NCBI GenBank assembly: GCA_032718475.1
Contig: JAUCBJ010005856.1
Coordinates: forward strand, 1 to 35,117
Source: Nemertoderma westbladi
Lineage: Eukaryota; Animalia; Xenacoelomorpha
DNA: 35,117 nucleotides
Direction of reading: 5' to 3'
Shown: in pieces, positions 1 through 33,704 of the stretch
How the letters are laid out: every line of letters begins with the position of its first letter
Position numbering within the stretch: position 1 is the first letter of the stretch
Notes under the pieces: model-generated
Seen by the model: the letters and a program-made list of their open reading frames with translations, nothing else
What the model was told of the DNA's origin: nothing
Databases searched by the model: none
Made by a program: the position numbers and the translations under genes

Positions 1-298
1 GGCACTGAATCAACAAGCACATACACATACTGACAGAAGCACTCAATGCTGCAATGTAACAATGCTGCAATGTACAGAAGTAGGTACGTACTAAAAGGTA
101 GAACGATCTATAACGGGCTATAACGATCTATAACTATCTATAAGGGCAGAACGGGCTATAATTTTCTATAAACAAGCTATAACCACCTATAATGAGCTAT
201 AATATGAAAATTTACAATAAAAAAACATATTTTAGCATGGATTTATTTTCCTAGTCAGTAATTTAATTAAGCAATTTGGTTTATTCATTAGTCAGGTA

Positions 299-322
299 CC
301 CCCCCCCCCCCCCCCCCCCCCC
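299..322 (+). repeat. Poly-C homopolymer (24 nt)
   Basis: Direct reading of the C run. Confidence 0.95.
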
Positions 323-711
323 ACCCCCAGTGCTGTAGTACAGGTAATTGAAATAAACACCATTCCTACAATTCTAGTTGTTTTCACTAATTTGAAAAAT
401 ACTTGTTACTTGCACTTTTCATTTTAGCACCAAAAATGGTAGATACACGTGTTCAATTGCGGAATGTAAAAAGCCTTCCATTAAACAGTTAAAATCAGCG
501 TACAAGAAAACCTGCCTGAAATCGATATCAATACCTAACTCTAACTAATACATTGATTGAATACTTTGACATATTCTGATATTGATTGATCTAATACTTT
601 GAAATTCAGATTTATGTGAAAATCGATAATGTCACAACCGTTACGAAACTATGTCACGACCGTTACGCTGGCTAATTGATTGCCACATTCTCTACTGCTG
701 TAATACAGTAA

Positions 712-1730
712 TACTACTACTACTATGATCGGCATGCTGCATTGCAACTGCATTTTTAAGAATGCTGTGCCGGCTTGTCGACAAATTGCGCCGCCACAAC
801 TCCCTATCACCCATGACATTTGCTAGATCATCCGCATCTTCAAGGCCAGTGTCCTTTAAGATGCGTCTCAATAAAGTCATGGGCTGTCCACCAGGCTTAT
901 TCACTCCATGAGGCTGCCAAAGTACAAGATTATGCACTGGCAGACTGGCTGGTCCTCACGGCGAAAGCAATGTCCTGCAAAGCGGAGGCGATTTTGTTCT
1001 AGTGTCAAGCTTAGGGGAACCAATGAGACACCTCCAATGTTATATAGTGTCTGGTTGGAGATGTGTGCATTGTACTTGACACAATGAACCCGGCGTAGCA
1101 TTCTTGTGAATGTGCCATCCAGAGATTTGGTGTCCTCAGCAGTTAGAGCCCAGCATGGGCTCCCATAGAGGAGTACTGGCTGACTGGCAGACTGGACTGC
1201 TGCTCTAAATAATCGGACCTTAAGTTTCCGATTAATTCTCGGTGACTTCCAAATCCTAGAAAGCCTATTCAAGGCTGCCCATGCCTTTCCCTTACGTATT
1301 CGAAGGTCCTCACCTGACTTCCGGATCCATGATCCCAGGTAACAGAAGTCGTCCTCATGCTCAAGCATACCATCCTTTGAGCTTATGCTCATCCAGTCAT
1401 CCGATCAGAGACTTGCTAAGGACTTTCAAAGTTAACTGTCTGACTGTCAAAAAAAAGACCAACACTAGAAGCAGCATGTTCTAATGAGCTGAGGAGCCGT
1501 TGGGCTCCCTCTAGTTATTCTGAGAGTACTCCTAAGTTATCAGCAAAGTCTAGATCAGTTAGGTACTTGGCAGGATTTCCTCGACTTTTGGAGCCAGTAG
1601 GTCAGTAGGTGGAGTTATCATCACCCCATCATCATTATGATGATCTAAGGACATGCAGACATGCGTAGAACATAGTCAACCACAATTATGAACAAGAATG
1701 GTGCAAGTGTGTCTCCCTGGAGGATGCCCC
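712..1730 (-). mobile_element. 5'-truncated non-LTR retrotransposon (RTE-like LINE), copy 1, frameshifted
   Basis: Minus-strand translation gives RT motifs GILQGDTLAPFLFIIVVDYVLR (~1660-1730), YLTDLDFAD and FCYLGS, plus the RTE-type C-terminus (KAWAALNRLSRIWKS..LKVRLF..PVLLYGS..W, RLRFAGHCFR). Ends in a (TAG)n tail at ~712-724. Confidence 0.9.
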
Positions 1731-1880
1731 ATAACGATCTATAACGGGCTATAACTTCCTATAACAAGCTAACCACCTATCTGCCTATAACGAGCTATAA
1801 TAGGAAAATTTACAATAAAAAAACATATTTTAGAATGGATTTATTTTCCTAGTCAGTAATTTAATTACGCAATTTGGTTT
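1731..1880 (+). repeat. Internal second copy of the left TIR/subterminal region of the MULE-like element
   Basis: ATAACGATCTATAACGGGCTATAAC...GAAAATTTACAATAAAAAAACATATTTTAG.ATGGATTTATTTTCCTAGTCAGTAATTTAATTA.GCAATTTGGTTT is a direct repeat of ~120-282 and starts exactly at the LINE 5' truncation. Confidence 0.9.
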
Positions 1881-2536
1881 TTTAGTCCATAATGCTTTTC
1901 ATCTTTTGTGGTATCACGAAATCAGTCATTACTGCATTAGTCAGCATGCCACTATACTGCATTATCTGACTATCAGACAGTGCAGCAGTGGAGAGGTCTC
2001 CCATCTCCCTGTCTATCCTCCATCCTGCTATCCGCTGTCAGCTTCTGGTCGATATAGAATACAAGAATATAGTGAGCAATAATAAAATAGGCCAATAAAA
2101 AAACTTATCAGTATCAATTAGGCATAGGCAGATAGGCCTACCTTAATTTTTAACCTGCGATATTTTTCAGACCATACCGTCTGACCGTGTTAATCCAAAA
2201 GTTAAACACACCCAAAGGGCGTTTTTCTAATGTAAATTTTCATATTATAGCTCGTTATAGGTGGTTATAGCTTGTTTATAGGAAGTTATAGCCCGTTATA
2301 GATCGATATAGATCGTTATAGCCCGTTATAGATCGTTCTACCTTTTAGTTCGTACCACAGATGTAACATACTGACATAGTAGTTTACATTTAAATATTAG
2401 CGGTCTGCCAGCAAGCCGGTGGCTCTATGCCTCTACAGCTCTATGTAAACGTACTGATGTATTCTAACTAACCAACTTAAGTTAACTTAACTGCTGTACC
2501 GGTACTGTACTTAACTTGTACAGTTGTACTTAAGCC

Positions 2537-2965
2537 AGGCTGGAAAATGTTTGCAAAAATTAAAACGCGTTGTGCGCGGTAAAATAATTTGTGCACGTGC
2601 GCGGAAAAGGCCAAAAACGTGCGCCGTGCATCCACAAAGCAGGCCACTTGTGCGCGCTTGCGCGTTCTTGCGCACCAAAAATTACCTGTTTTTTAAACAT
2701 ATGTAAGTACGGAAATTTTAATTGACCATTTAATATAAAACAATAAAATTTAAAGTCATTAAATCTGTAAATTGCAAATCTAGAGTACGGGAGTACGCAT
2801 ATTGAAAGTACCCAACCCCCTTAACTGCTTAATGAGGCGGGTCTTTACAGTTTGTCGTCGTATGCATTCGTGGCTGGTTAATTCAACTATTTCGTTTTAA
2901 CTACTCGGTTTCCGTACTTACATATGTTTCAGTGTTTCAAGCATATGTTTAGAAAAACAGGTAAT
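2537..2965. mobile_element. Probable degenerate foldback/MITE remnant
   Basis: ATTACCTGTTTTTTAAACATATGTAAGTACGGAAA (~2682-2715) is inverted at ~2909-2965 (TTTCCGTACTTACATATGTTT...AGAAAAACAGGTAAT). It is preceded by a TGCGC-rich tract starting CAGGCTGGAAA. The outer right end is not seen. Confidence 0.45.
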
Positions 2966-4290
2966 GTTTTAGTTCAAAATTTATTAGTTTTTTTTATCAT
3001 AAAACTATTACTTGGCGATGTAAAACATAATACATGTACATGTAGTCCTGTCCTACTGTAAGTAATTTAACACAACTTTTGATGAACAACAAAAGTATTT
3101 ATTTGTTGAATGGCAATAAAAACGGCAATAGTAGCGTATATACTGTGGAGTGAGCAATGAATAAAACCAACATAAATACAAATAAAAAAATAATAAAAAT
3201 TAAAATAATATATTCTAAACATATTGCGTCAGTAGTACAGTACAGCAGTAGGCCTACTGTATATTAATTTTGAAGCAAATTTTGATATTATTTTTTGTGT
3301 AAAATAGATTAAAACGTCAATACTACATGAGTACATGTAGAGTAAGCAAGTAATAAACCCAACATCATACTGGATATTTACAATATAATAAGATTACAAA
3401 TTAAAAAAGAAATTTAAAAATTAACAAGTTTATTGCGATAGTATAAAATAGGCTAAAAATTATATGAACGTAATTGTTACAGTAGATTAAAACATCATTA
3501 CATTCGATAATAGTAAGAGATATATAGTGGAAGCAATAAAAACCAACATACAGTATAATATTTACTAATTCACGAAACTTAATTACACTAGTATAAAATA
3601 ATGCAAAGTAATTCTAAAAAGGTTGAGACAATTAATATAGAAAATAAAATATTAAATAACATTAAACAATTATTATCATTAACAAAACATTAAATAAACT
3701 ATCTGCTATGAAACATTCAAATATTGATGTGTGGAGAGAGAGTTGGTGAAATAAAATATGGCATTGATTAAATAAAATATAATACAGTAAATTTAAGGGC
3801 CATGTCTATGAATATGAAACAATAAATAAATAGTGATGTATGATATCTATAGTGTTACATCTGCATCACGATCTACCTACCCGCGGCGCCGCGGCCACAC
3901 ATTTATGTAATCGTGTTGTGAAAGCATGGAATTATATTCCATTAGATATAATAACAATTTATCGTTTTAATAGATATCTTAGATTTGGTGGTTTTCCGTA
4001 ACTACAGACTAGACTACATTTCAGCATGTAAAGTATTTTATTTTTTTTATTTATGTAACGGTACTTATTACTGATCATACGCACAGGGCACAGACCTACT
4101 TACTTACCTTGATCCATAGTATAAGTCGCCCGCACAGCCTATCGCTTACTCCTGTGATGTTTCCAGACTCCTAATCAGCTAATAATATATATATATATAT
4201 CCCTGGGGCCGGGGTATACCATGTATACAGATATAATTATGTAAATTAAATGAATTACCGTTGGCTTTAGGCCCTGCTGCACTACTAGTT

Positions 4291-4325
4291 ATTATTTTTA
4301 CTGTTTTTTTCACCATTAATTACAG
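4291..4325 (+). promoter_or_regulatory. Candidate 3' splice or trans-splice acceptor upstream of the importin ATG
   Basis: T-rich tract ATTATTTTTACTGTTTTTTTCACC followed by TTACAG, 120 nt before the ATG. Confidence 0.35.
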
Positions 4326-4444: not shown

Positions 4445-7400
4445 ATGTATGAACAGATATTGGCAGCTCTTCAGGCTACGTTAGACCCACAGCAAAGGGA
4501 GCAAGGGGAGGCGCTGCTGGACCAAATGCATAAAATCTCCCAGTTCGCGCCGCTGTTACTACAAATAGTAAGCAACGACACTGTCGAAGGCCCAATACGA
4601 CAAGCCGGGGTCATTTTCCTCAAGAACTTAGTTTTGGGAAGTTGGGTAGCGAAAGAAGTAAAACCCGGGGAGCCATTGGGGTTTAATATACATGAAGATG
4701 ACCGCGTCGTTATTAGGAATAATATAGTCGACGCGATTATTAATGTATCCGAGTTGCTCCGCTGTCAGCTCTGCGTCTGCGTGCAAACCATTATCAAACA
4801 CGACTTCCCCGAGCGGTGGCCTTCGTTGCCTGATAAATTACTCACATATTTACAGAACGAGGACCCAAATCAAGTCGTCGGCGCCTCCTTGGTCCTCTAC
4901 CAGATGGTTAAAACATACGAGTACAAGAAATCCGAAGAATGCAAACCGCGAGATGAAGTTGTAGGGAAGTTGATGCCACTCCTGTTGCAGCGGAGTCGAC
5001 ATCTATTGGATGACCCGTCCGAAATCGCCGCTCACATACAGAAAATCACGTTTAAAATACTTTACGCGTTCGTCCAGTACAACCTGCCGAAGGCTGTGAT
5101 GACCCACGAGGTGTTGAGTCAGTGGTTCGTCGTGTTCCAGGGCGTTCTAGAACAGCCGGTGCCGGAGGCCGGCTACACCAAGGTGGAGGAGGATGAGAGG
5201 CCCGAGCTGATCTGGTGGAAGGCCAAGAAGTGGGTGTTGCACATACTGGTGAGGGTGTTCGAGCGATACGGTAGTCCTGGGAACGTGGCCAAAGAGTACG
5301 AACCCTTCGCTAAGGAGTACATTAAACGCTACGCCGCGGGGGTCGTCTGTCTCATGCTCAAAGTTTTTGAGCGTAAGCGCAACGGCGAGTATATATCGCC
5401 GCGTGTGCTGCAACAGACTCTCAACTACCTCAACAACAGCGTCAACTACTCACAGTGCTGGAAGATACTAAAGTTTCAGTTCCAGGGTCTCATCGAGTCC
5501 GTGGTCTTCCCGATGCTGTGCCATTCGGACGAGGACGACGAGGTCTGGGCCAACGATCCTCACGAGTACATCCGCAGCAAGTACGACATCTTCGAGGAGT
5601 TTGTCTCCCACGTGTCCGCGGCCCAGATGTTCATCCACTCGGCCGTCAGTAAGCGTCGCAACGTGCTGCAGCCGCTGCTCGACATGTGCGTCGGACACCT
5701 CATGGCGGCGTCCCCGGACCCCAGACAGGTCGACGGCGCCCTCCATCTGGTCGGCGCGGTATCCGAGGTCCTAATGAAACGGAAACTCTACAAGGCGCAA
5801 CTCGAGGAGATGCTCGTCAAGCTCGTCTACCCCCGGTTCAAATCGCCGCACCCGTATCTGCGATCGCGCGCCTGTTGGGTCTTACAGAACTTCTCGGAGT
5901 TGAAGTTCGACTCGGTAGAGAACCTGGCGTTCGGTCTTCAGAGCATATGCGAGCTTCTTGTCAATAAGGAGGAGGACCTCCCGGTGCGAGTGGGCGCCGG
6001 GATCGCGTTGCAGTCGCTCATCGCCCATCAGGATCACGTGCAACGCCTCATCGGGGAGCAGAGCGCGGCGATCCCGGAGATAATGAACGCGTTGCTGGAC
6101 CTGATCCGGGACACGGAGAACGACGATCTCAACTCCGTCGTACAGAAACTCATCTGTGAGTACGGCGACCAAGTGGCCGAGCACGCGGACGATATCACCA
6201 AACACCTCGTCGAGACCTTCATCAAGGTCATAGAAGGCAACGAGTTGGGCGGCGACGACGTTGATGACAAGGCGATGACCGCCGCCGGGATATTAACCAC
6301 CATAGAAACTCTGTTGGACGTTCTGGAAGACAACGAGGAGATCATGGAGCGCTTAGAACCTTCAGTTCTCGTTATTATCAATCACGTGTTCCTTAATTCT
6401 GTTGTCGACTTCTACGAGGAGGTCCTCTCGTTGGTCTACAGTTTGACTACGACTCGGGTCTCCTCCCACTTGTGGTCTCTCTTCCTTCCCATCTGCAATC
6501 TCTTCGACTCCGACACCGATTACTTCCTCGATATAATGCCGGTGATGCACAACTACATCTCGGTGGGTCCGGAGGCCTTCCTGGCCGAGCCCGACAGACT
6601 CGAGCGAGTCATCTCGATCTGCCAACGCGTGATGGCCGAGGAAACCTCCGGGGATGACTTCCAATGCCACGCCGGTAAACTCCTCGAGGTTCTCGTCCTC
6701 CAGTTCGCCAACGCCATCAACAACGTCCTCCCGCGGCTCCTCGAGATCCCCGTGCGGAAGTTGATGACCAACGTGGACGTCAGCGAACTGCGGCAGATCT
6801 GTCTGCAGGTCGTCATTGCGGCTTTCTTCAACAACCCGCAGTTCGTTATCGGGTTGCTCGACACTATCACTCTCCCCTCCGGCAGCTCCTTCACGGAGTG
6901 TTTCATCGGACTCTGGATCGCGGACACCGACGTCTTCCTCGGGGTCCACGACAGGAAGGTGTGCATCCTCGGCCTCTGTACCCTCCTGCAGTCTGTCGTC
7001 AACGGTCTCAGTGTCAACAACGCGTTGGTCGCCAGGATCATCCCCTCCATCATCCTCCTCCTCAACGGGATCCGCGCGGCCTACGCAAAGAAAGCTGAGA
7101 ACGAGAAGGAGGAAGAGGAGGAGGTTGATGAAGAGGAGGCGGAGGAAGACACCGGCGATGATGAAGTCGCATCGGATGAGGAAGTCGTCGACGCCGATGT
7201 GCAGGAGATCGTGAACGGCGATACGAAACCGATCATCGATCTGGTTAACGGCTTATCTGATACCGAAAGCGACGACGACGACGACGATAGTTTCGACGAA
7301 ACCCAACTGGAGTCCTACACAACGCCGCTCGACAGCGAAACCTCTGCTGTAGACGAGTTTGTAACTTTTAAGGATTTATTGGAGTCGTTAAACTCATCCA

Positions 7401-7633
7401 ATCCCGACGTCTACAAACAACTGACCGGCTCACTTAATGCCGATCAACTCAAAGACATTCGCGAGTTGTTTACTCTCGCTGATCAACGTAAAGCCGCCGC
7501 GGATTCTCGCCGTATCGAGGCCGAGGGCGGCTACCAGTTCGTACAAACCGCGGTCCCCGGCCAGTTTAATTTCGTCGGTCCGATACCGAATAACTTTGAG
7601 TTCGGCAATCCTCCCACTAATAATGGTCATTAA
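4445..7633 (+). CDS. IPO7: Importin-7 (IPO7/IPO8, Moleskin family) karyopherin-beta, 1062 aa, single coding exon
   Basis: End-to-end collinear with importin-7 as I recall it: IBN_N (IRQAGVIFLKN), LYQMVKTYEYKK, ERPELIWWKAKKW, FERYGSPGNVAKEY, PRVLQQTLNY, DGALHLVG, RSRACWVL, TENDDL, CHAGKLLEV, FLGVHDRKVCILGLC, acidic loop, C-terminal LADQRKAA..GGYQF. No stops; GC-rich compared with the AT-rich flanks. Confidence 0.96.
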   Translation: MYEQILAALQATLDPQQREQGEALLDQMHKISQFAPLLLQIVSNDTVEGPIRQAGVIFLKNLVLGSWVAKEVKPGEPLGFNIHEDDRVVIRNNIVDAIINVSELLRCQLCVCVQTIIKHDFPERWPSLPDKLLTYLQNEDPNQVVGASLVLYQMVKTYEYKKSEECKPRDEVVGKLMPLLLQRSRHLLDDPSEIAAHIQKITFKILYAFVQYNLPKAVMTHEVLSQWFVVFQGVLEQPVPEAGYTKVEEDERPELIWWKAKKWVLHILVRVFERYGSPGNVAKEYEPFAKEYIKRYAAGVVCLMLKVFERKRNGEYISPRVLQQTLNYLNNSVNYSQCWKILKFQFQGLIESVVFPMLCHSDEDDEVWANDPHEYIRSKYDIFEEFVSHVSAAQMFIHSAVSKRRNVLQPLLDMCVGHLMAASPDPRQVDGALHLVGAVSEVLMKRKLYKAQLEEMLVKLVYPRFKSPHPYLRSRACWVLQNFSELKFDSVENLAFGLQSICELLVNKEEDLPVRVGAGIALQSLIAHQDHVQRLIGEQSAAIPEIMNALLDLIRDTENDDLNSVVQKLICEYGDQVAEHADDITKHLVETFIKVIEGNELGGDDVDDKAMTAAGILTTIETLLDVLEDNEEIMERLEPSVLVIINHVFLNSVVDFYEEVLSLVYSLTTTRVSSHLWSLFLPICNLFDSDTDYFLDIMPVMHNYISVGPEAFLAEPDRLERVISICQRVMAEETSGDDFQCHAGKLLEVLVLQFANAINNVLPRLLEIPVRKLMTNVDVSELRQICLQVVIAAFFNNPQFVIGLLDTITLPSGSSFTECFIGLWIADTDVFLGVHDRKVCILGLCTLLQSVVNGLSVNNALVARIIPSIILLLNGIRAAYAKKAENEKEEEEEVDEEEAEEDTGDDEVASDEEVVDADVQEIVNGDTKPIIDLVNGLSDTESDDDDDDSFDETQLESYTTPLDSETSAVDEFVTFKDLLESLNSSNPDVYKQLTGSLNADQLKDIRELFTLADQRKAAADSRRIEAEGGYQFVQTAVPGQFNFVGPIPNNFEFGNPPTNNGH

Positions 7634-8232
7634 GATTTATAATCAGGTGTTTTTCTCTATTTACATACTTCTGAGTTACTTTACCGTGTGCTGATCCGAG
7701 TTATTTGTTACACGAACGAGCGTAGTGAGTTCGTTAAATTAAAAATACGAGGATCTAAATACTGTAAGTATTTTATAACGATGAAGCATGTAGCTTTAAT
7801 CCAAGATTGTAACATAACTAAACGGGTGTCCTTTAATAACGCTTATGATACTCTCGTTGTTGAAATAATTATAAAGTTTTCAATTAAGTTTTTCTAGTTT
7901 TTTAATGTCACTAAATACTAAATAGACTATCAAATACGAAGTTTTGACATAATATCAAAAGATTCTTTCCATCCAATATAGTTATAGTCGTTTACCCGTT
8001 GAGTTGTGAAGTCTACATACCATATGTTCTCAACTAAACTGTTAATAGTAGTACTAATGAATGGCGTTTAATTATGTTTAAATTTTGGATTAAAGTATAT
8101 TATAAGTTAATTGACGGTTTACCGAGATTATTAGTGCTAATGAAGGTTTAGGTGAATGTGAACTACCGACACAAGCAATTCACATTATATTATATCAATT
8201 ACTTACCATAATATTTAATTTGTTTTTATGTG

Positions 8233-9465
8233 TACTACTACTACTACTAGGATCGGCATGCTGCATTGCAGCTGCATTTTAAGAATGCTGTGCCGGCTTG
8301 TCGACAAAATTGCGCCGCCACAACTCCCTATCACCCATGACATTTGCTAGATCATCCGTATCTTCAAGGCCAGTGTCCTTTAAGATGCATCTCAAGAAAG
8401 TCATGGGCTGTCCACCAATGAGATACCTCCAATGTTATATAGTGTCTGGTTGGAGATGTGTGCATTGTACTTGACACAATGAACCCGGCGTAGCATTCTT
8501 GTGAATGAGTAACAGAAGTCGTCGACATGCTTAATCACGCATACCATCCTTTGAGCTTATGCTCATCCGATCAGAGACTTGCTGAGGACTTTCAAAGTTA
8601 ACTGTCAAAATTTTGTTCTTTTTGGAGTTAATAAAAAGACCAACACTAGAAGCAGCATGTTCTAATGAGCTGAGGAGCCGTTGGGCTCCCTCTAGTGATT
8701 CTGAGAGTACTCCTAAGTCATCAGCAAAGTCTAGATCAGTTAGGTACTTGGAATAAGTCAACAAAGATAACATCCAGATGCCTGGCTATCTCTTTTGATA
8801 ACTCTTCAATTATCCTTCTAAGTGCCAAAACGGGCTCCATGGTCCCACGACCTTTACGGAACCCATTCTGATTTCCACGGAGCAGTCTCTCAATGGGATC
8901 CCTGATGCGATTTAATAGAATCCTATTGTATAGTTTTGCAGCAATCGAGATCAATGAGATTCCCCGAAAAGAACCATAGAGTGTTAGGTTGCCCTTCTTG
9001 GGAACTGGCACCAACTTATTTGTTTTCATTTCTTGTGGGACTCTTGTTGTTCGGTACATGTCTACTATGATGGGATAGATGAGCTTTAAACACTCAGGTA
9101 TTTTAAAGACCTCAGGGGGAACACCATCTACTCCACTGGCACGATTGGTCTTATTGCTCTTTGCAGCAGCCTTCACTTCTGCAAAGGGGATATCGCCAAT
9201 GGGAATATCTGGGAGTACAGACTCAGACACTTTTACTTCTATAAAGTTATCAGGCAATACCCTGTCATTATTGAGGAGCTTTTCAAAGTGGGCGGCCTTC
9301 CAACCATTGAGGCGATCGGCTGGTTATTCAGCCCTAACCTTGGTGGTTGGTTGGCTTTTCAGCCCAGTAGGCAAGTTGATCGATTTCCATGCCTGGGATG
9401 ATTGCCTGCTTTCGTCAGCATCATTGATGGCATCAACCTGTTGGTTTATTAGCTCCTGTAGATTA
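8233..9465 (-). mobile_element. RTE-like LINE copy 2, 5'-truncated and internally deleted
   Basis: RT N-terminal motifs (ASGVDGVPPE, LVPVPKKGNL..SFRGISLISIAAKLYNRILLNRIR, QNGFRKGRGT, IFVD) and YLTDLDFADD. The 3' UTR and (TAG)n tail at 8233-8250 are nearly identical to copy 1. Deletion junctions lie near 8416, 8508 and 8750. Confidence 0.92.
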
Positions 9466-9504
9466 GTAGTAGAGTCATGGCCGGCTCGGCGACAGATGTT
9501 AGAC

Positions 9505-9790
9505 CACACTGACTGGCGCCAGACTGTCTGTGTGACACCCAATGACACCTATGGGTGTCATTGGCGCCAGACTGTCTGGGTGACACCTCCTAATTAGGCT
9601 AATTAGACCCTAATTGACAGGTGTCATCAATTAATTAGTACAATTAAACCCTAATAGGTTTCTTACGACTCCTAATTAGGGTTTAATTGATTATCCTAAT
9701 TAATCAATGCGATACGCAATGGTGTCACTGTTGTCTAACTATCGCCTAGAGGGCCAAGAGGGTGTCATAAGTGACACCGCAGCTCTTTTA
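9505..9790. repeat. Cluster of TGACAC/GTGTCA and TAATTA motifs with direct and inverted repeats
   Basis: About 8 TGACAC/GTGTCA and at least 5 TAATTA in ~280 bp. Direct repeat TGGCGCCAGACTGTCTG.GTGACACC at ~9514 and ~9562. Hairpin CCAATGACACC-TATG-GGTGTCATTGG at 9539-9564. Confidence 0.7.
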
Positions 9791-10140
9791 TTTATTAATA
9801 CTTATTTATTTGTATTTAATTTTACTTTATTTATTTGTATTTAATTTCAATTTTTTTAATTGTATTTATTTTAGATTTACCAATAATTAGTTTTAAATAT
9901 TGGTTTCTAAATGACCTCATTGACTTTCATCTCGTTATACTTAGCCATAGGGTATACAGCTCCCTTACTGGTAACTAATTACTCTTATCTATATCCAGAC
10001 AGCTTTATCGTTGACCTTTGACCCCCAATTAGCTTTAACCAAGCAACAGCTTATTAATAATAGTTGTATCCAAGCGCCCCGCCCCCCTCTCGTGACACCT
10101 CTGATTACTAATTACTCTTACCTATATCCAGCCGTCTGCA

Positions 10141-11482
10141 GTTCCATAGTCTGCCGCTAGAGGGCTCAAAGGATGGTATGCTTGAGCATGTGGACGACTT
10201 CTGTTACCTGGGATCATGGATCCGGAAGTCAGGTGAGGACCTTCGAATACGTAAGGGAAAGGCATGGGCAGCCTTGAATAGGCTTTCCAGGATTTGGAAG
10301 TCACCGAGAATTAATCGGAAACTTAAGGTCCGATTATTTAGAGCAGCAGTAGTTCCAGTACTCCTCTATGGGAGTCCATGCTGGGCTCTAACTGCTGAGG
10401 ACACCAAATCTCTGGATGGCACATTCACAAGAATGCTACGCCGGGTTCATTGTGTCAAGTACAATGCACACATCTCCAACCAGACACTATATAACATTGG
10501 AGGTGTCTCATTGGTTCCCCCAAGCTTGACACTAGAACAAAACCGCCTCCGCTTTGCAGGACATTGCTTTCGCCGTGAGGACCAGCCAGTGCATAATCTT
10601 GTACTTTGGCAGCCTCATGGAGTGAATAAGCATGGTGGACAGCCCATGACTTTCTTGAGACGCATCTTAAAGGACACTGGCCTTAAAGATGCGGATGATC
10701 TAGCAAATGTCATGGGTGATAGGGAGGCGGTGCAATTTTGTTGACAAGCCGGCACAGCATTCTTAAAAATGCAGCTGCAATGCAGCATGCCGATCCTAGT
10801 AGTAGGGCGTATGATCTGAAAATTAACATCTTCTCTAACTTTGTTATTTTCATTCCGAATAGGTTTAAACTCGGTAGGCATCTACTACGGCATAGGCCAT
10901 ATCTTTTGTGGAGACATAGAGTAGTCTGAAGTTCCATAGTCTGCCGCTAGAGGGCGTATGATCTGAAAATTAACATCTTCTCTAACTTTGTTATTTTCAT
11001 TCCGAATAGGTTTAAACTCGGTAGGCATCTACTACGGCATAGGCCATATCTTTTGCGGAGACATAGATTAGTCTGAAGTTCCATAGTCTGCCGCTAGAGG
11101 GCGTATGATCTGAAAATTAACAACTTCTCTAACTTTGTTATTTTCATTCCGAATAGGTTTAAACTCGGTAGGCATCTACTACGGCATAGGCCATATCTTT
11201 TGCGGAGATATAGAGTAGTCTGAAGTTCCCCTGTCTGCCGCTAGAGGGCGTATTATTTGAAAATTAACATCTTCTCTAGCTTTGTTATTTACAATCCGCA
11301 AAACTATGAAGTTATATTGCTTAAGAGTTCTAAGGGGCGAGCCATGAGGCAAGATGTTTGAGGCTTATTTAGATATATTATTACTTAATTTTGACCCCCA
11401 AACGGCATCTACTACGGCATAGGCCATATCTTTTGCAGAGTCATAGAGTAGTCTGAAGTTCCCCAGTCTGCCGCTAGAGGGC
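10141..11482 (+). repeat. 147-bp tandem repeat (3 units plus one 233-bp unit), first unit interrupted by a LINE
   Basis: Marker CCGCTAGAGGGC at 10154, 10944, 11091, 11238 and 11471. Spacings are 790 (=147+643 inserted), 147, 147 and 233. Confidence 0.92.
10166..10803 (+). mobile_element. RTE-like LINE copy 3, 5'-truncated, with 5-bp TSD AGGGC
   Basis: ORF 10178-10744 is nearly identical to the copy 1 C-terminus and ends GATCCTAGTAGT. AGGGC flanks it at 10161-10165 and 10804-10808. Removing the insert plus one TSD restores an exact 147-bp unit. Confidence 0.92.
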
Positions 11483-11594
11483 AAAATGTCTCAAAGTGAA
11501 AACCATATGGTAGCCATGAATTGGTTACTAGGCAATAATACTGCATTTTGCAACGTTAGGCCTATTGCTGACCGAACGAAAACTGCCCTGGTTC

Positions 11595-11662
11595 ATGCAT
11601 AGGGATATCGAACCCATGACATACGGGAGATGTGAATTCAACGCAACCACTACACCAAGGTG
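11595..11662 (-). mobile_element. tRNA-derived SINE head or tRNA-like relic with Pol III A and B boxes
   Basis: Minus strand reads TGGTGTAGTGG (A box, 11647-11657) then GGTTCGATATCC (B-box-like, 11603-11614) at tRNA-like spacing. No clean cloverleaf. Confidence 0.5.
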
Positions 11663-11769
11663 GAACAGTAACCTTGGAATTTGTTCGTTGACGTTCGAAT
11701 TTGTAAGACTCTCATTTAAGACCTGACACAGACTATAACTTAAATTAACTATAACTTAAATTAATATAC

Positions 11770-12050
11770 TGTGGAGCGAGCCACGATTAGTGAGCGAAGC
11801 TACTAGCGCACAATTTCAATTAGTATTTGGGCATAATATCATGTCCGTCTGTTTGTCTGCCCATCTGTCTGTAATAGAAAATTCAATCGTTTGACCAATC
11901 AATTTTAACCTAATTTGGATGGACCTACTAGAGGAATAGTTCCAATATTTTGAAAAAAAATTTTCGTGGGGCATTCGTGCTGCACGAGTCGAGTACTCGG
12001 GTTACCCGTTCTCGAGTAAGCAGCCGCTCATGCTGCACGACGCTATACGT
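11770..12050 (+). mobile_element. Possible Helentron-associated (DINE-1/HINE-like) non-autonomous remnant
   Basis: GAGCGAGC/GAGCGAAGC start, a degenerate (GTCY)n microsatellite at 11843-11872, and short palindromes TCGTGC-T-GCACGA (11975-11987), CGAGTACTCG and CGGGT-T-ACCCG. The family call is by resemblance only. Confidence 0.35.
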
Positions 12051-12935
12051 ACGTTTATTTATATACTGCGAGACGTACGAATAGGCTGAAGTGCTATAGT
12101 GGAACCACAAACATATCCACACACATACATACTAATACAGGTGTCGCGATGTCGGGTTATAATTCTACTCCAGCTCTCCGAAATGTTGATCCAATCGACG
12201 GTAAACAAACTGAACATAAACAAAAAAAACATACCAATTTCAGGGTCTTCATAAGGGGCTCCTTACGGCAACGCTTGCGTTGCGTTTCTAGTGGGCGGGT
12301 AGTGAGATATATAGGATGGTGTTGTCCGCATGCAGTGGGCCTAGAACCAACATCTGTCGAATTGCTATAAATACTTTAATTAAAAGAACATAAAACGATA
12401 TCAACCCTTTAACTTCTGAATAATAACTATGTAGCTAATTAGTTACATAACATTAAAGGAAATCCATCTCTTATCTAAAACACTTAAACTTGAGGCCATC
12501 GGATATCGTGGAGCGCGATTCTTACTTGAGAATTACTCCAACGGTATAAATATATAATGTATATATATATAATGTATTTATACAAAGGATATAATTTAGA
12601 CACATTTTATTCCTAACTTGTACTTTTTATTTATCTTTATATAAATCCGGTACTTTTTTTCACAGATTTGTCGTCTCAAGGGAATCATTTTCGTTCCGGA
12701 CTTTTTAAAAGTAACAGTATTTTGCGAACAGTATTTTTCTGATTATTGATCATATACGGTTGTTATTTTTTATAATTTCCACCATATCACTTATATCACT
12801 TATAATTTCTACAATTTTAGGTCACGTGTTCGATCCCACCTAAACGTTAAGCTGTGGTCAACGAAAATTATAATAAAATGAATCTACTCACCACCCAAAA
12901 TACCAATAATATTAATTTTATGGTAGTTAGTGATA

Positions 12936-15900
12936 TTTCGTCTCCATATATTTTTTGGTCCTTTCCGTCCCCTGGACTTTTCGTCTCCAAATATATTTTT
13001 AACCTTTCCGTCCCCCGGACTTTTCGTCTCCATATATTTTTTGAACCTTTCCGTCCCCCGGACTTTTCGTCTCCATATATTTTCTGAGCCTTTCCGTCCC
13101 CCAGGACTTTTCGTCTCCATTTATTTTTTGAATCTTTCCATTCCCCGGACTTTTCGTCTCCATATATTTTTTGGTCCTTTCCGTCCCCATGACTTTTCGT
13201 CTCCATATATATTTTTCACCTTTCCGTCCCCAGGACTTTTCGACTCCAAATATATTTTTAACCTTTCCGTCCCCCGGACTTTTCGTCTCCATATATTTTT
13301 GAACCTTTCCGTCCCCCGGACTTTTTGTCTCCATATATTTTTTGGTCCTACCCGTCCCCAGGACTTTTCGTCTCCAAATATATTTTTCACCTTTCCGTCC
13401 CCAGGACTTTTCGACTCCAAATATATTTTTCACCTTTCCGTCCCCAGGACTTTTCGTCTCTATATATTTTTTGGACCTTTCCATCCCCCGGACTTTTAGT
13501 CTCCATATATTTTTTGGTCCTTTCCGTCCCCTGGACTTTTCGTCTCCAAATATATTTTTCACCTTTCCGTCCCCAGGACTTTTCGTCTCCAAATATATTT
13601 TTAACCTTTCCGTCCCCAGGACTTTTCGTCTCCAAATATATTTTTCACCTTTCCGTCCCCAGGACTTTTCGTCTCCATATCTTTTTTGGTCCTTTCCGTC
13701 CCCATGACTTTTCGTCTCCATATATATTTTTCACCTTTCCGTCCCCAGGACTTTTCGACTCCAAATATATTTTTTACCTTTCCGTCCCCAGTACTTTTCG
13801 TCTCCATATATTTTTTGGACCTTTCCGTCCCCCGGACTTTTTGTCTCCATATATTTTTTGGTCCTACCCGTCCCCAGGACTTTTCGTCTCCAAATATATT
13901 TTTCACACTCCGTCCCCAGGACTTTTCGTCTCTATATATTTTTTGGACCTTTCCATCCCCCGGACTTTTAGTCTCCATATATTTTTGGACCTTTCCGTCC
14001 CCTGGACTTTTCGTCTCCATATATTTTTGGACCTTTCCGTCCCCTGGACTTTTCGTCTCCAAATATATTTTTCACCTTTCCGTCCCCAGGACTTTTCGTC
14101 TCCAAATATATTTTTAACCTTTCCGTTCGCAGGACTTATCGTCTCCATATATTTTTTGAACCTTTCCATCCCCAGGACTTTTTGTCTCCATATATTTTTT
14201 GAACCTTTCCGTCCCCGGACTTTTTGTCTCCATATATTTTTTGAACCTTTCCGTCCCCTGGACTTTTCGTCTCCATATATTTTTGAACCTTTCCGTCCCC
14301 CGGACTTTTCGTCTCCATATATTTTTTGAACCTTTCCGTCCCCAGGACTTTTCGTCTCCATATATTTTTGAACCTTTCCGTCCCCCGGACTTTTTGTCTC
14401 CATATATTTTTGGACCTTTCCGTCCCCCGGACTTTTCGTCTCCATATATTTTTTTAACCTTTCCGTCCCCAGGAACCTTTCCGTCCCCCGGACTTTTTGT
14501 CTCCATATATTTTTGGACCTTTCCGTCCCCCGGACTTTTCGTCTCCATATATTTTTTTAACCTTTCCGTCCCCAGGACTTTTCGTCTCCATATATTTTTT
14601 TAACCTTTCCGTCCCCAGGACTTTTCGTCTCCATATATTTTTTTAACCTTTCCGTCCCCAGGACTTTTCGTCTCCATATATTTTTGAACCTTTCCGTCCC
14701 CCGGACTTTTTGTCTCCATATATTTTTGAACCTTTCCGTCCCCAGGACTTTTCGTCTCCATATATTTTTTGAACCTTTCCATCCCCCAGACTTTTCGTCT
14801 CCATATATTTTTGAACCTTTCCGTCCCCAGGACTTTTCGTCTCCATATATTTTTTTAACCTTTCCGTCCCCTGGACTTTTCGTCTCCATATATTTTTTTA
14901 ACCTTTCCGTCCCCAGGACTTTTCGTCTCCATATATTTTTGAACCTTTCCGTCCCCCGGACTTTTTGTCTCCATATATTTTTGAACCTTTCCGTCCCCCG
15001 GACTTTTTGTCTCCATATATTTTTGAACCTTTCCGTCCCCCGGACTTTTCGTCTCCATATATTTTTTTAACCTTTCCGTCCCCAGGACTTTTCGTCTCCA
15101 TATATTTTTCACCTTTCCGTCCCCCGGACTTTTCGTCTCCATATATTTTTTTAACCTTTCCGTCCCCAGGACTTTTCGTCTCCATATATTTTTTTAACCT
15201 TTCCGTCCCCAGGACTTTTCGTCTCCATATATTTTTGAACCTTTCCGTCCCCCGGACTTTTTGTCTCCATATATTTTTGAACCTTTCCGTCCCCCGGACT
15301 TTTTGTCTCCATATATTTTTGAACCTTTCCGTCCCCCGGACTTTTCGTCTCCATATATTTTTTTAACCTTTCCGTCCCCTGGACTTTTCGTCTCCATATA
15401 TTTTTGAACCTTTCCGTCCCCTGGACTTTTCGTCTCCATATATTTTTTTAACCTTTCCGTCCCCAGGACTTTTCGTCTCCATATATTTTTAACCTTTCCG
15501 TCCCCCGGACTTTTCGTCTCCATATATTTTTGAACCTTTCCGTCCCCCGGACTTTTCGTCTCCATATATTTTTGAATCTTTCCGTCCCCCGGACTTTTTG
15601 TCTCCATATATTTTTGGACCTTTCCGTCCCCCGGACTTTTCGTCTCCATATATTTTTGAACCTTTCCGTCCCCCGGACTTTTTGTCTCCATATATTTTTG
15701 AACCTTTCCGTCCCCCGGACTTTTCGTCTCCATATATTTTTAACCTTTCCGTCCCCCGGACTTTTCGTCTCCATATATTTTTGAACCTTTCCGTCCCCCG
15801 GACTTTTCGTCTCCATATATTTTTGAACCTTTCCGTCCCCCGGACTTTTTGTCTCCATATATTTTTGAACCTTTCCGTCCCCCGGACTTTTCATCTCCAT

Positions 15901-18900
15901 GTATTTTTGAATCTTTCCGTCCCCCGGACTTTTTGTCTCCATATATTTTTGAACCTTTCCGTCCCCCGGACTTTTCGTCTCCATATATTTTTGAACCTTT
16001 CCGTCCCCCGGACTTTTCGTCTCCATATATTTTTGAACCTTTCCGTCCCCCGGACTTTTCGTCTCCATATATTTTTGAACCTTTCCGTCCCCCGGACTTT
16101 TCGTCTCCATATATTTTTGAACCTTTCCGTCCCCCGGACTTTTCGTCTCCATATATTTTTGAACCTTTCCGTCCCCCGGACTTTTCGTCTCCATATATTT
16201 TTGAACCTTTCCGTCCCCCGGACTTTTCGTCTCCATATATTTTTGAACCTTTCCGTCCCCCGGACTTTTCGTCTCCATATATTTTTCACCTTTCCGTCCC
16301 CATGACTTATCGTCTCCATATATTTTTTGGACCTTTCCGTCCCCAGGACTTTTCGTCTCCATATATTTTTGAACCTTTCCGTCCCCCGGACTTTTTGTCT
16401 CCATATATTTTTTGAACCTTTCCGTCCCCCGGACTTTTCGTCTCCATATATTTTTTTAACCTTTCCGTCCCCCGGACTTTTCGTCTCCATATATTTTTGA
16501 ACCTTTCCGTCCCCCGGACTTTTCGTCTCCATATATTTTTGAACCTTTCCGTCCCCAGGACTTTTCGTCTCCATATATTTTTGAACCTTTCCGTCCCCCG
16601 GACTTTTCGTCTCCATATATTTTTGAACCTTTCCGTCCCCCGGACTTTTCGTCTCCATATATTTTTTTAACCTTTCCGTCCCCCGGACTTTTTGTCTCCA
16701 TATATTTTTGAACCTTTCCGTCCCCCGGACTTTTTGTCTCCATCTATTTTTGAACCTTTCCGTCCCCCGGACTTTTCGTCTCCATATATTTTTGAACCTT
16801 TCCGTCCCCAGGACTTTTCGTCTCCATATATTTTTGAACCTTTCCGTCCCCCGGACTTTTCGTCTCCATATATTTTTGAACCTTTCCGTCCCCAGGACTT
16901 TTCGTCTCCATATATTTTTTTAACCTTTCCGTCCCCCGGACTTTTCGTCTCCATATATTTTTGAACCTTTCCGTCCCCCGGACTTTTCGTCTCCATATAT
17001 TTTTGAACCTTTCCGTCCCCAGGACTTTTCGTCTCCATATATTTTTGAACCTTTCCGTCCCCCGGACTTTTCGTCTCCATATATTTTTGAACCTTTCCGT
17101 CCCCCGGACTTTTCGTCTCCATATATTTTTTTAACCTTTCCGTCCCCCGGACTTTTTGTCTCCATATATTTTTGAACCTTTCCGTCCCCCGGACTTTTCG
17201 TCTCCATATATTTTTGAACCTTTCCGTCCCCAGGACTTTTCGTCTCCATATATTTTTGAACCTTTCCGTCCCCCGGACTTTTCGTCTCCATATATTTTTG
17301 AACCTTTCCGTCCCCCGGACTTTTCGTCTCCATATATTTTTTTAACCTTTCCGTCCCCCGGACTTTTTGTCTCCATATATTTTTGAACCTTTCCGTCCCC
17401 CGGACTTTTTGTCTCCATCTATTTTTGAACCTTTCCGTCCCCCGGACTTTTCGTCTCCATATATTTTTGAACCTTTCCGTCCCCAGGACTTTTCGTCTCC
17501 ATATATTTTTGAACCTTTCCGTCCCCCGGACTTTTCGTCTCCATATATTTTTGAACCTTTCCGTCCCCCGGACTTTTCGTCTCCATATATTTTTGAACCT
17601 TTCCGTCCCCCGGACTTTTCGTCTCCATATATTTTTGAACCTTTCCGTCCCCCGGACTTTTCGTCTCCATATATTTTTGAACCTTTCCGTCCCCCGGACT
17701 TTTTGTCTCCATATATTTTTGGACCTTTCCGTCCCCCGGACTTTTCGTCTCCATATATTTTTTTAACCCGTCCCCCGGACTTTTCGTCTCCATATATTTT
17801 TGAACCTTTCCGTCCCCAGGACTTTTCGTCTCCATATATTTTTGAACCTTTCCGTCCCCCGGACTTTTCGTCTCCATATATTTTTGAACCTTTCCGTCCC
17901 CAGGACTTTTCGTCTACATATATTTTTGGACCTTTCCGTCCCCCGGACTTTTCGTCTCCATATATTTTTTTAACCTTTCCGTCCCCCGGACTTTTCGTCT
18001 CCATATATTTTTGAACCTTTCCGTCCCCAGGACTTTTCGTCTCCATATATTTTTGAACCTTTCCGTCCCCCGGACTTTTCGTCTCCATATATTTTTGAAC
18101 CTTTCCGTCCCCCGGACTTTTTGTCTCCATATATTTTTTGGTCCTTCCGTCCCCAGGACTTTTCGTCTCCATATATTTTTTGAACCTTTCCGTCCCCCGG
18201 ACTTTTTGTCTCCATATATTTGTTGTCCCTTCCGTCCCCCGGACTTTTCGTCTCCATATGTTTTTGAACCTTTCCGTCCCCCGGACTTTTTGTCTCCATA
18301 TATTTTTTGTCCCTTCCGTCCCCAGGACTTTTCGTCTCCATATATTTTTTGAACCTTTCCGTCCCCGGACTTTTTGTCTCCATATATTTTTGAACCTTTC
18401 CGTCCCCCGGACTTTTCGTCTCCATATATTTTTGAACCTTTCCGTCCCCCGGACTTTTTGTCTCCATATATTTTTTGTCCCTTCCGTCCCCATGACTTTT
18501 CGTCTCCATATATTTTTTGGACCTTTCCGTCCCCCGGACTTTTCGTCTCCATATATTTTTTTAACCTTTCCGTCCCCAGGACTTTTCGTCTCCATATATT
18601 TTTTTAACCTTTCCGTCCCCCGGACTTTTTGTCTCCATATATTTTGTGGATCTTTCCATCCCCCGGACTTTTCGTCTCCATGTATTTTTTGAATCTTTCC
18701 ATCCCCCGGACTTTTCGTCTCCATATATATTTTTCACCTTTCCGTCCCCCGGACTTTTCGTCTCCATATATTTTTTGAACCTTTCCGTCCCCCGGACTTT
18801 TTGTCTCCATATATTTTTGAACCTTTCCGTCCCCCGGACTTTTCGTCTCCATATATTTTTTTAACCTTTCCGTCCCCCGGACTTTTCGTCTCCAAATATA

Positions 18901-30900: not shown

Positions 30901-31485
30901 ACCTTTCCGTCCACAGGACTTTTCGTCTCCAAATATATTTTTCACCTTTCCGTCCTCATGACTTTTCGTCTCCAAATATATTTTTCACCTTTCCGTCCCC
31001 CGGACTTTTCGTCTCCATATATTTTTTGAACCTTTCCGTCCCCAGGACTTTTCGTCTCCATATATTTTTTGGACCTTTCCGTCCACAGGATTTTTCGTCT
31101 CCAAATATATTTTTCACCTTTCCGTCCCCAGGACTTTTCTACTCCAAATATATTTTTCACCTTTCCATCCCCAGGACTTTTCGTCTCCATATATTTTTTG
31201 GACCTTTCCGTCCCCATGACTTTTCGTCTCCATATATTTTTTGGACCTTTCCGTCCCCAGGACTTTTCGTCTCCATATATTTTTTGGACCTTTCCGTCAC
31301 CAGGACTTTTCGTCTCCATATATTTTTTGGACCTTTCCGTCCCCAGGACTTTTCGTCTCCATATATTTTTTGGACCTTTCCGTCCCCATGACTTTTCGTC
31401 TCCATATTTTTTTTGAATCTTTCCATTCCCCGGACTTTTCGTTCGTCTCCATATATTTTTTGGACTTTTCCGTCCCCCTGACTTA
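12936..31485. repeat. Satellite DNA array, 42-43-bp monomer, roughly 430 copies, ~18.5 kb
   Basis: Consensus GGACTTTTCGTCTCCATATATTTTT(T)GAACCTTTCCGTCCCC(C/A), head-to-tail in one orientation, with a strongly pyrimidine-rich + strand. Length variation is mostly in the T run. Copy number is length divided by period. Confidence 0.99.
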
Positions 31486-32016
31486 TGTTTCGGTCCGAAA
31501 CGACCTTGATCCACAACAATATATCGAGCATAGTGCCCTCCTCGAGGTATTTTATTCCACTGACGAGCGTCTGTAGATGATAAGAGCCAAGAGCGCAGTG
31601 AAATAAAGTTAACAACATTTTCCCTTTTTGATAATACTTCCTTGCTACTGTAATACTGTACTTCCTTGCTTAATTAATTTAAATAATTGCTTGCTTTAAC
31701 TCTAGATTTGTGAAGAAAAAAGTATTCCTACTCAAGCATATCCGATGTAAAATAATTAATTTATAGTTCTGGAATACTTAAGGTCTACAGTACTACATAG
31801 CTCATAAAGGGAAATAAAATAATATTTAGAGTATTTTCAAAAAAAAATTTTTTACTAAGTCGTTCGAACGACATACGAAAAAATCACATTCCTGTCTATT
31901 TGGAATCTCCATAAGTACTGTAACTTAGTAGATAGAAAAATTAATTAGATATAAACTGTGTATTTTATTACTGTATTTAAGTTTGGAAATTTTCAATTTT
32001 TAAAGCAAAATTTGCC

Positions 32017-32050
32017 ATGTTTTCTTGGATTCTCTGCATTTATGTATCAG
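32017..32050 (+). CDS. Secreted ShKT-domain protein, coding exon 1 (signal peptide)
   Basis: GCC-ATG start, MFSWILCIYVS, then CAG|GTATGT phase-1 donor. Joins the next exon in frame to give hydrophobic MFSWILCIYVSVLATLVSLNV. Confidence 0.75.
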
Positions 32051-32325
32051 GTATGTTATCACTTTGATTTCCAAATCTCCAATGAGCAGTTAGTTTTACG
32101 TCTGTAAACGTCCGGGTCCGATATTTAGTTATTTATGTATGTTTATATCTGTACATTAATATAGGCCCACAAAACAAACTTAGATAGAAAAAAACGCGAA
32201 GCCACTGTGTAAGATAATAAAACAGAAGGTTTTTATACTGTATAGAAAAAATATAGTAAATCGTGATAAACCAGGTCTTAGTTTTATACGACACTCGGTT
32301 GATTTCTACTAATAAATTGTTTCAG

Positions 32326-32499
32326 TTCTAGCGACTTTAGTATCGCTGAACGTGATACCGCCGAACCCGTGTGTAGAAGATCCCGACGACGATGTCCAGT
32401 GTGCCGGGTGGGCCGCAGTAGGGGAGTGTCTTAGCAACCCCGATTATATGTACATACACTGCCAGAAGAGTTGTAACAAATGCGACGATGGATACGCCG
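32326..32499 (+). CDS. Secreted ShKT-domain protein, exon 2 (ShKT domain 1)
   Basis: TTGTTTCAG acceptor, G|GTATGA donor, 174 nt, phase 1-1. Encodes ..PNPCVEDPDDDVQCAGWAAVGECLSNPDYMYIHCQKSCNKCDDGYA, the six-Cys ShKT pattern C..WA..GEC..NP.YM...C.KSC..C. Confidence 0.9.
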
Positions 32500-32571
32500 G
32501 TATGATAACAACCACATTACAGTATTAATCTGTAATGAGCAAAATCAATACTCTATTATCAAACTATAGAT

Positions 32572-33701: not shown

Positions 33702-33704
33702 GTA

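Follow-up and report, generated by a model that had tools for sequence, protein, structure and literature searches.

Clustered N5-CAG/CTG-N5 insertions upstream of an importin-7 gene in Nemertoderma westbladi as probable excision footprints of a DNA transposon

Footprints and target duplications of described transposons

Target-duplication length and excision chemistry serve as hallmarks of transposon superfamilies. Sleeping Beauty and mariner transposases place a nick 3 nt within the transposon, and the footprint is the resulting overhang, the canonical Sleeping Beauty/Tc1-mariner footprint being TA-CAG/CTG-TA (PMC7827188, PMC8151067). Tc1/mariner-type elements in general duplicate TA (PMC10045372, PMC7827188). 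The Nemertoderma westbladi locus described here carries short sequences in which a 5-mer is repeated around CAG or CTG (N5-CAG/CTG-N5), termed scars. The window was the whole stretch of DNA analysed, 35,117 nt. Like Sleeping Beauty footprints, the scars have a 3-nt CAG between duplicated targets, which would be a remnant of the element ends, left when a nick 3 nt in from the tip is followed by end joining. The 2-3-base footprint of Tc1/mariner elements is seen as CAG/CTG, presumably derived from terminal bases. The TA target duplication is absent. The scars duplicate a variable HHNDD 5-mer and add a net 8 bp, compared to 5 bp for Sleeping Beauty.

A 5-bp duplication is also known for hAT5, which occurs in invertebrates (PMC12730594, PMC9004415). 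hAT5 presumably excises via flank hairpins as other hATs do. By analogy with those elements its footprints would be variable with no fixed remnant, unlike the uniform 5+3 of the polarized scars. Transib resembles the scars in its 5-bp target site duplication (TSD) and the CMCT clade in its CA..TG ends, while EnSpm ends are CAC..GTG and both Transib and CMCT excise with flank hairpins (PMC12730594, PMC5499845, PMC8151067, PMC11071193). The CAG..CTG ends proposed here would fit CA..TG but not CAC..GTG. The spacer of the scars is the same whatever the flank, which differs from hairpin excision. No N5-CAC/GTG-N5 class was found (0 and 1 matches). Transib ends are likewise CAC..GTG.

Ginger2, IS481EU and LTR integrases make 4-5-bp or 3-6-bp staggers (PMC10045372), which makes a stagger of 5 bp plausible for an integrase fold. 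The IS481EU and LTR ends given there, TG..CA or TNT..AYA, cannot yield a CAG/CTG remnant (PMC10045372). N5-CA/TG-N5 was not enriched (1 observed, 0.68 expected), which does not fit the TG..CA ends of LTR and Ginger elements. Ginger2 shares the TG..CA or TNT..AYA ends. NuwaI (PHIS) has GGG ends and duplicates CWG as its 3-bp TSD (PMC4482050), whereas the empty sites of the scars mostly had no adjoining CWG. The literature found pairs 5-bp duplications with hairpin enzymes (Transib, and hAT5 by descent) or with TG..CA ends, and 3-nt remnants with TA targets. A footprint combining both predicts a new transposase or a chemistry switch in a known one. No published footprint of this kind, and no precedent for a 5-bp stagger with Sleeping Beauty/mariner-type chemistry, was found in the literature searched, a search whose scope left most subscription journals and the Repbase reports outside.

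The scar cluster and its host region

The whole window contained 25 exact N5-CAG/CTG-N5 motifs (14 CAG, 11 CTG), all inside 44-4183. Positions 1-3000 held 23 of these, compared to a mean of 0.098 and a maximum of 2 in 1000 dinucleotide shuffles. The original prediction had reported about 18 scars in 3 kb and put the chance expectation at well under 1 per 3 kb. Every coordinate and 5-mer it listed was confirmed in the sequence, and five exact motifs had been overlooked (481, 1978, 2760, 2820 and 3238). It had also proposed counting the motif genome-wide against other 3-nt spacers and shuffled sequence; CAG and CTG were enriched over other spacers in the window and over shuffled sequence in 1-3000. 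CAG (14) and CTG (11) were the most frequent non-homopolymer spacers among all 3-nt spacers, followed by AGT (6). No motif occurred in 7631-12930 or 31491-34200, about 8 kb of other non-coding DNA in the window. The scar cluster is genuine and far above chance.

Importin-7 loci of other eukaryotes showed no scar excess: in 80 loci and 399,542 bases CAG occurred 8 times and CTG 19 times, the average spacer 11 times, these loci being mostly transcript-sized contigs with little intron sequence. CpG depletion was the same in scarred and clean regions (observed/expected 0.78 vs 0.78), leaving a link to CpG-poor DNA unsupported.

The first two scars, both CAATG-ctg-CAATG (44-56 and 60-72), lie in one 16-bp tandem repeat and may be a single event that was copied. 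TTAAA-cag-TTAAA (481..493), ATATT-ctg-ATATT (571..583) and TAATA-cag-TAATA (701..713) follow. The last is ambiguous due to overlap with a TA-CAG-TA word, as is CAGTA-cag-CAGTA (3238..3250). Seven scars fall in a 5'-truncated, minus-strand copy of a young high-copy LINE at 717..1735. Beyond it are CCTAT-ctg-CCTAT (1776..1788), CATTA-ctg-CATTA (1927..1939), CAGTG-cag-CAGTG (1978..1990), ATAGG-cag-ATAGG (2124..2136), ACCGT-ctg-ACCGT (2176..2188) and ACATA-ctg-ACATA (2366..2378), and then CTCTA-cag-CTCTA (2431..2443), TTGTA-cag-TTGTA (2516..2528), TAAAT-ctg-TAAAT (2760..2772), CTTAA-ctg-CTTAA (2820..2832), TGTTT-cag-TGTTT (2925..2937) and CTAAT-cag-CTAAT (4171..4183).

The LINE copy carries its 7 scars alongside 10 private substitutions, among those listed, in about 1 kb. 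The reverse transcriptase of the same family is encoded at 8534-9323 (Pfam RVT_1). Removing the scars by script did not extend the longest LINE frame (167 codons before, 147 after) because other indels are present. A 26-base LINE motif had no match in metagenome or viral contigs and the LINE protein had none in viral contigs. A non-autonomous terminal inverted repeat (TIR) element at 83..2356 also hosts scars. It ends in GGTAC, has subterminal repeats of 10 bp and is flanked by a 9-bp duplication (8/9 identical). From these features it appears Merlin- or MULE-like. It was rejected as the maker of the scars.

An intronless importin-7 coding sequence of 1062 aa lies on the plus strand at 4445..7633, with 42-47% identity to animal importin-7 among the 120 matches listed and no match in prokaryote genomes. 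It contains no scars. A putative splice-acceptor AG is present on the plus strand at 4324..4325, where a contig of sequencing run X4, which appears to be RNA, begins with 50 loose letters. Two words from these letters had no match in the window. The AG likely ends an importin-7 5'-UTR intron that would hold all the scars. Scar density falls toward the importin-7 coding exon (23 vs 2, p = 0.004), and no scar lies outside a stretch of 4.2 kb. Both observations count against the reading preferred below.

Insertion polarity and properties of the footprint

Nine scars at eight sites were shown to be insertions, as sister repeat copies among in-window paralogues and family contigs lack them. The original prediction had described five of these sites as missing from paralogous copies. 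This was borne out for 936, 1389 and 1776, where the paralogues aligned are shorter by exactly 8 bp. ACTGG-cag-ACTGG (936..948) is missing from paralogue 10164-10805 and from family contigs, TCATC-cag-TCATC (1389..1401) from paralogue 8509-8751 and family contigs, and the scar at 1776 from paralogue 150-285. The other two are also missing from paralogues and have small deletions next to them. The double scar ACTGG-ctg-ACTGG-cag-ACTGG (1175..1195), one site hit twice, shows a net excess of 12 bp, which is 16 minus an adjoining 4-bp loss, and contigs have loose ends at 1179. For ACTGT-ctg-ACTGT (1435..1447) the paralogue has a single ACTGT and no CTG, a deletion just 3' merges into the same alignment gap, and contig loose ends lie at 1440. 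Family copies genome-wide lack the 8 bp at 481, 936, 1389, 1595 and 1650 among the 12 of 136 matches listed. The gaps at 1595 and 1650 correspond to TAGGT-cag-TAGGT (1598..1610) and ACATG-cag-ACATG (1651..1663). The 8 bp were missing at 481 in 4/4 runs and at 1650 in 3/4.

The window comes from one assembly, and one of the compared runs, X1, may be from its source sample, which leaves room for the scars to be a sequencing or assembly artefact. Scars at the same places occur in contigs of three studies. One X1 contig spans the scars at 2431 and 2516, with 0 differences at 2431, and the scar at 4171 has 0 differences in spanning contigs of X1, X2 and X3. Contigs of two further studies carry four scars: 2760, 2820 and 2925 on X4 contig 2613-3110, which at 2760 has 1 other letter and 0 gaps, and 4171 in X2. 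An additional scar at a new site, AATGA-ctg-AATGA, was found in another LINE copy in run X2 and matches HHNDD. Together these largely refute an artefact, the chance of which is negligible. An X3 sequence that steps back 5 bases around a single C reads better as TA-CCGG-TA and was left out of the count.

The duplication length is 5 bp, with 14/25 scars having no extension, no N6-CWG-N6 and 2 N4-only cases. CAG and CTG are nearly equal (14:11, p = 0.69). The flank does not supply the constant spacer, since 20/25 collapsed sites have no adjoining CAG/CTG and only 1/25, the scar at 1598, doubles as a perfect 8-bp duplication; the scar at 936 is one base short of one. The 5-mers prefer the palindromic pattern HHNDD (21/23 independent sites, background 0.47, p = 1e-5), a pattern derived from the same sites on which this p value was computed. 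Other 3-nt spacers gave no comparable class once scar overlaps were removed, leaving 17 heterogeneous period-8 runs in 1-4325. Partial N5-C/G-N5 scars (7 vs 2.0 expected; downstream 7 vs 2.8) are partly simple repeats and are not claimed.

Micro-duplication through slippage or polymerase-theta-type repair of staggered breaks would need no transposon. The scars at 1598 and 936 and the failure to find an element are in its favor. The untemplated constant spacer in 20/25 scars, the fixed length, the palindromic preference and the lack of a comparable class with another spacer make it highly improbable.

TA-CWG-TA words were enriched in the same region (8 vs 1.0 expected), as were TACATGTA words (3 vs 0.2 expected), which are also ordinary TA-type footprint words. 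The Tc1/mariner element leaving the TA-CAG/CTG-TA words could sometimes use non-TA sites with a wider stagger. The spacer is identical, and Sleeping Beauty can, on rare occasions, use non-TA sites (PMC7827188). However, the 5-bp class is the commoner in 331-4325 (23 vs 8) and of one fixed length, TA is missing from the junction in most scar 5-mers, and ShK-gene introns contain 10 TA-CWG-TA words and 0 of the 5-bp class. This origin is improbable.

A described lineage with 5-bp TSDs, hAT5 or a CAG-ended CMCT/Transib relative, may also have left the scars while still making flank hairpins. The first nick would then fall 3 nt inside the element and CAG would be a hairpin loop that survived opening. 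Many hAT ends start with CAG or TAG, which counts for a hAT5-type donor. hAT5 has 5-bp TSDs, is placed beside Blackjack and is found in invertebrates and fish (PMC12730594, PMC9004415), and CMCT lineages combine CA..TG ends with TSDs of 2-5 bp (PMC12730594). Excision by hAT and Transib is blunt or leaves a 1-nt 5' overhang and runs via flank hairpins, giving variable footprints (PMC8151067, PMC5499845). The polarized insertions in the LINE copy are uniformly 5+3, though two adjoin small deletions. Hairpin excision by such a lineage is rather unlikely. The original prediction could assign the combination to no standard superfamily; this is compatible with the literature found and unproven, with hAT5 and CMCT still candidates.

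Proposed mechanism, donor search and significance

The 8-bp insertions are best read as excision footprints of a cut-and-paste DNA transposon with putative CAG...CTG ends, with a probability of about 65%. A transposase dimer would insert the element with a 5-bp stagger, giving the 5-bp target duplication. On exit, two hydrolyses would sever the transferred strand at the element's tip and its partner strand 3 nt further in, as happens with Sleeping Beauty and mariner. Each flank would retain a 3-nt 3' CAG overhang, and the overhangs would pair with a central A:A mismatch. End joining and mismatch repair would resolve the mismatch to CAG and CTG with about equal frequency. The likely importin-7 5'-UTR intron would have been struck repeatedly, with one site struck twice. 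The repeated hits suggest either that this part of a housekeeping gene is targeted or that the element hops locally.

A pair scan of the non-satellite window found no CAG...CTG element that had both a convincing terminal repeat and a duplication of exactly 5 bp. The 16 CAG...CTG pairs were LINE-to-LINE inversions, chance pairs or an inverted repeat at 33.7-34.2 kb, and the sole TSD-matching pair was rejected with 5/14 terminal mismatches. The inverted repeat (243-bp arms; CAG 33708, CTG 34204) was rejected as a CAG-ended family because its flanks are unequal and its outer arms have low depth in runs X1-X3 (23-125) compared to the core at 33790-34119 (about 300-2000). A Pfam scan of 95 stop-to-stop frames in the window found no transposase domain, returning RVT_1, DUF6451, ShK and weak matches only. 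No filled-site junction was present among the 24 loose ends listed (3567 more were outside the list). An excised cut-and-paste element with CAG...CTG ends and a 5-bp TSD, as first proposed, is well supported as to its footprint, through the constant non-templated spacer, the nearly equal forms, the 5-bp length, the polarity and the palindromic sites. The element itself is deduced from that footprint.

The donor may tentatively be placed in a lineage of eukaryotic DNA transposons that is as yet undescribed, or in a hAT5/CMCT lineage that has abandoned hairpin excision. Such a lineage would combine a mariner-type exit with an integrase-like, sequence-flexible 5-bp entry, and would hit the 5' intron of a housekeeping gene and leave scars nearly as fast as point mutations arise.

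The footprint supplies an exact search image, CAG...CTG ends and a 5-bp HHNDD duplication, and a simple regular expression makes the scars a map of past insertions. At this locus it reveals a frameshifting 8-bp mutation whose local rate of origin is near that of substitutions. If the reading as transposon footprints is true, an active enzyme would offer gene transfer a non-TA counterpart to Sleeping Beauty.

Scar number and genomic setting

The exact N5-CAG/CTG-N5 motif, a 5-mer repeated around CAG or CTG (CWG) and here termed a scar, occurred 25 times in the 35-kb window by regular-expression count (14 CAG, 11 CTG), spanning 44 to 4183; the scars at 44 and 60 are perhaps one copied event, and those at 701 and 3238 are ambiguous as they overlap TA-CAG-TA words. 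The original prediction of about 18 scars had all coordinates correct and all listed scars were present, but its list lacked 481, 1978, 2760, 2820 and 3238. Region 1-3000 contained 23 scars versus a mean of 0.098 and a maximum of 2 in 1000 dinucleotide-preserving shuffles, in agreement with the predicted chance expectation of well under 1 per 3 kb. No scars were present in 7631-12930 and 31491-34200, the remaining two non-coding, non-satellite stretches of the window. The CAG and CTG spacers were at background (8 and 19, respectively, versus a per-spacer mean of 11) across 399,542 bases from 80 importin-7 loci of other eukaryotes.

Downstream of the scars is an intronless importin-7 coding sequence (4445-7633) with 42-47% identity to animal homologues among the 120 matches listed. 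This coding sequence is GC-rich (about 57%) and divergent, with at most 47% identity to any of those 120. The scarred stretch is comprised of nested repeats, including a TIR element (83-2356) that ends in GGTAC and is flanked by a 9-bp duplication, a 5'-truncated copy of a young high-copy LINE (717-1735) and others. Contigs from four public runs (X1-X4) were compared with the window. Although labelled 'DNA?', X4 has contigs that cluster on exons, suggesting that it is RNA. In one X4 contig the match begins at the AG of 4324-4325; 50 letters are left unaligned, and two words from these are absent from the window. This one contig makes it likely that the entire scarred stretch is a 5'-UTR intron. 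At 3110 the match to several contigs broke off; one of them, a near-identical X4 contig, continued for 210 unlike letters. The break may be the edge of a repeat or a structural allele.

Elsewhere, satellites occupy 12936-31484 (43 bp × 434) and 34205-35116 (26 bp × 35). Their units often hold a pyrimidine run ending CCCCAG|G (201 and 23 copies of CCCCAGG), which looks like a splice acceptor. A 147 bp tandem repeat of 3.4 copies (10804-11298) carries CCGCTAGAGGGC in each unit, which we take to resemble a CTCF site. A small inverted-repeat element (32976-33220) has 98-bp arms, internal 20-bp repeats and further copies in the genome.

Polarity of the insertions

The 8-bp insertions are a real, well-polarised class. 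Compared with other copies of the repeats within the window, the scarred copies were longer by exactly 8 bp at 936, 1389 and 1776, and at the double scar (1175-1195) by 16 bp minus a neighbouring 4-bp loss. ACTGT occurs once in the sister copy at 1435, where the scarred copy also has a deletion just downstream. All five sites had been proposed as insertions and this was borne out, with small deletions adjoining 1175 and 1435. Among 12 of 136 matches, family copies in public-run contigs lacked the 8 bp at 481, 936, 1389, 1595 and 1650. In all, nine scars at eight sites were polarised.

Public-run contigs also carried scars, which argues against artefact. A gapless X4 contig spanned 2613-3110 with one differing letter and included 2760, 2820 and 2925, and 4171 was unchanged in contigs of X1, X2 and X3. 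The four runs represent three samples from three studies (X1 and X3 share a sample), one of which may be the source of the window. An extra scar, AATGA-ctg-AATGA, was found at a LINE site empty in the window (among 12 matches listed, with 269 more), so the class is not limited to the importin-7 locus. A second row with a 5-base step-back was dropped as a scar, TA-CCGG-TA being the better reading.

Geometry, site preference and rate

The duplication length is five bases. Fourteen of 25 scars had no extension on either side and the others extended by 1-3 bases; N6-CWG-N6 was absent and just two cases were N4-only. The spacer is not derived from the flank, as 20 of 25 collapsed sites had no adjoining CAG or CTG and the sole perfect 8-bp duplication was at 1598. 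The pattern HHNDD (G avoided at positions 1-2, C at 4-5) was present at 21 of 23 independent sites versus a local background of 0.47 (p=1e-5, computed on the same 23 sites from which the pattern was derived). Central A/T preference was not significant (17/23, p=0.23). A dimeric enzyme that attacks its target with a 5-base stagger would be expected to leave a palindromic preference over a fixed span of this length.

The LINE copy carried seven scars while 1880 bases of downstream sister copies carried none (p=5e-4). It differed from the family majority at at least 10 positions (among 40 of 469 matches) and from one sister copy at 13 of 641. The scar rate is thus of roughly the same order as the substitution rate. 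Density dropped toward the coding exon (23 in 1-2937 versus 2 in 2938-4325, p=0.004) despite HHNDD sites being commoner there (0.55 versus 0.42). Scarred and clean regions had identical CpG o/e (0.78 each).

TA-CWG-TA words, the usual TA-type footprint, were enriched in the scarred region (8, 1.0 expected) and in the introns of the gene with two exons that each code a ShK-like domain by Pfam (32316-32525 and 33482-33715; 10, 0.6 expected), but not downstream (1, 1.0 expected). No 5-bp scars were found in these introns, so the 5-bp class acts as a separate system. Other footprint-like words lie at 2497-2509, 3031-3044 and 3332: TA-CCGG-TA joined to TA-CTG-TA, and TACATGTA twice in tandem and once more. 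Such varied words suggest visits to the stretch by several TA-targeting elements.

Proposed origin and known families

The insertions are likely transposon footprints of a geometry absent from the literature searched. According to excerpts of PMC7827188 and PMC8151067, Sleeping Beauty and mariner make a first nick three bases in from the end of the element and a second at the tip. Each flank is left with a 3-nt 3' overhang, and end joining gives a footprint equal to it. A donor with CAG...CTG ends would enter by a 5-base stagger and exit in this way. N5-CAG-N5 and N5-CTG-N5 would then be equal in number, as observed (14:11, p=0.69). We put the probability of such an element, with mariner-like exit and 5-base entry stagger, at roughly two in three. 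The insertions, their 5-bp geometry and the site preference are established, whereas the predicted cut-and-paste element itself, its ends and its chemistry are inferred. The window yielded no donor: CAG...CTG elements combining a convincing terminal repeat with a 5-bp duplication were absent, as was any transposase domain in 95 frames. An inverted repeat with CAG/CTG ends (33702-34210, 243-bp arms, 99% complementary) was rejected as donor since its flanks differ and only its core (33790-34119) is high-copy; the outer arms resemble a local inverted duplication abutting the satellite. Scans of metagenome and viral contigs (LINE motif; LINE protein, viral only) contained no DNA of this organism.

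The donor may instead come from a known family, hAT5 or CMCT. In the sections available of the sources, hAT5 has 5-bp duplications and is placed near Blackjack (PMC12730594, PMC9004415), CMCT lineages combine CA..TG ends with duplications of 2-5 bp (PMC12730594), and Transib is given 5 bp in a teaching key (PMC11071193 supplement). Flank-hairpin excision is described there as common to hAT, Transib and MULE, with variable hAT footprints (PMC5499845, PMC8151067). hAT5 and Transib therefore share the duplication length, but their expected footprint differs from the scars. The scars behave as a Tc1/mariner footprint but fail its TA test, TA being duplicated by ITm elements in general (PMC10045372, in part). 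Excerpts give duplication of CWG itself for NuwaI (PMC4482050), 3-4 bp for AcademX, 4-5 bp for Ginger2, 3-6 bp for LTR elements (PMC10045372) and 4 bp for Sola (PMC10741241). Unclassified DNA transposons with 5-bp TSDs exist in two tardigrade rows of the portion seen of the PMC11071193 supplement. The portions available of PMC5753468, PMC7805219, PMC11219922, PMC5199201, PMC9587614 and PMC6004678 held nothing on this footprint. The geometry was not found in the literature searched; Repbase, Dfam termini or terminal logos may hold a CAG-ended 5-bp family. It is possible, though less likely than not, that the scars belong to a transposon lineage not yet described or reflect a change in excision chemistry.
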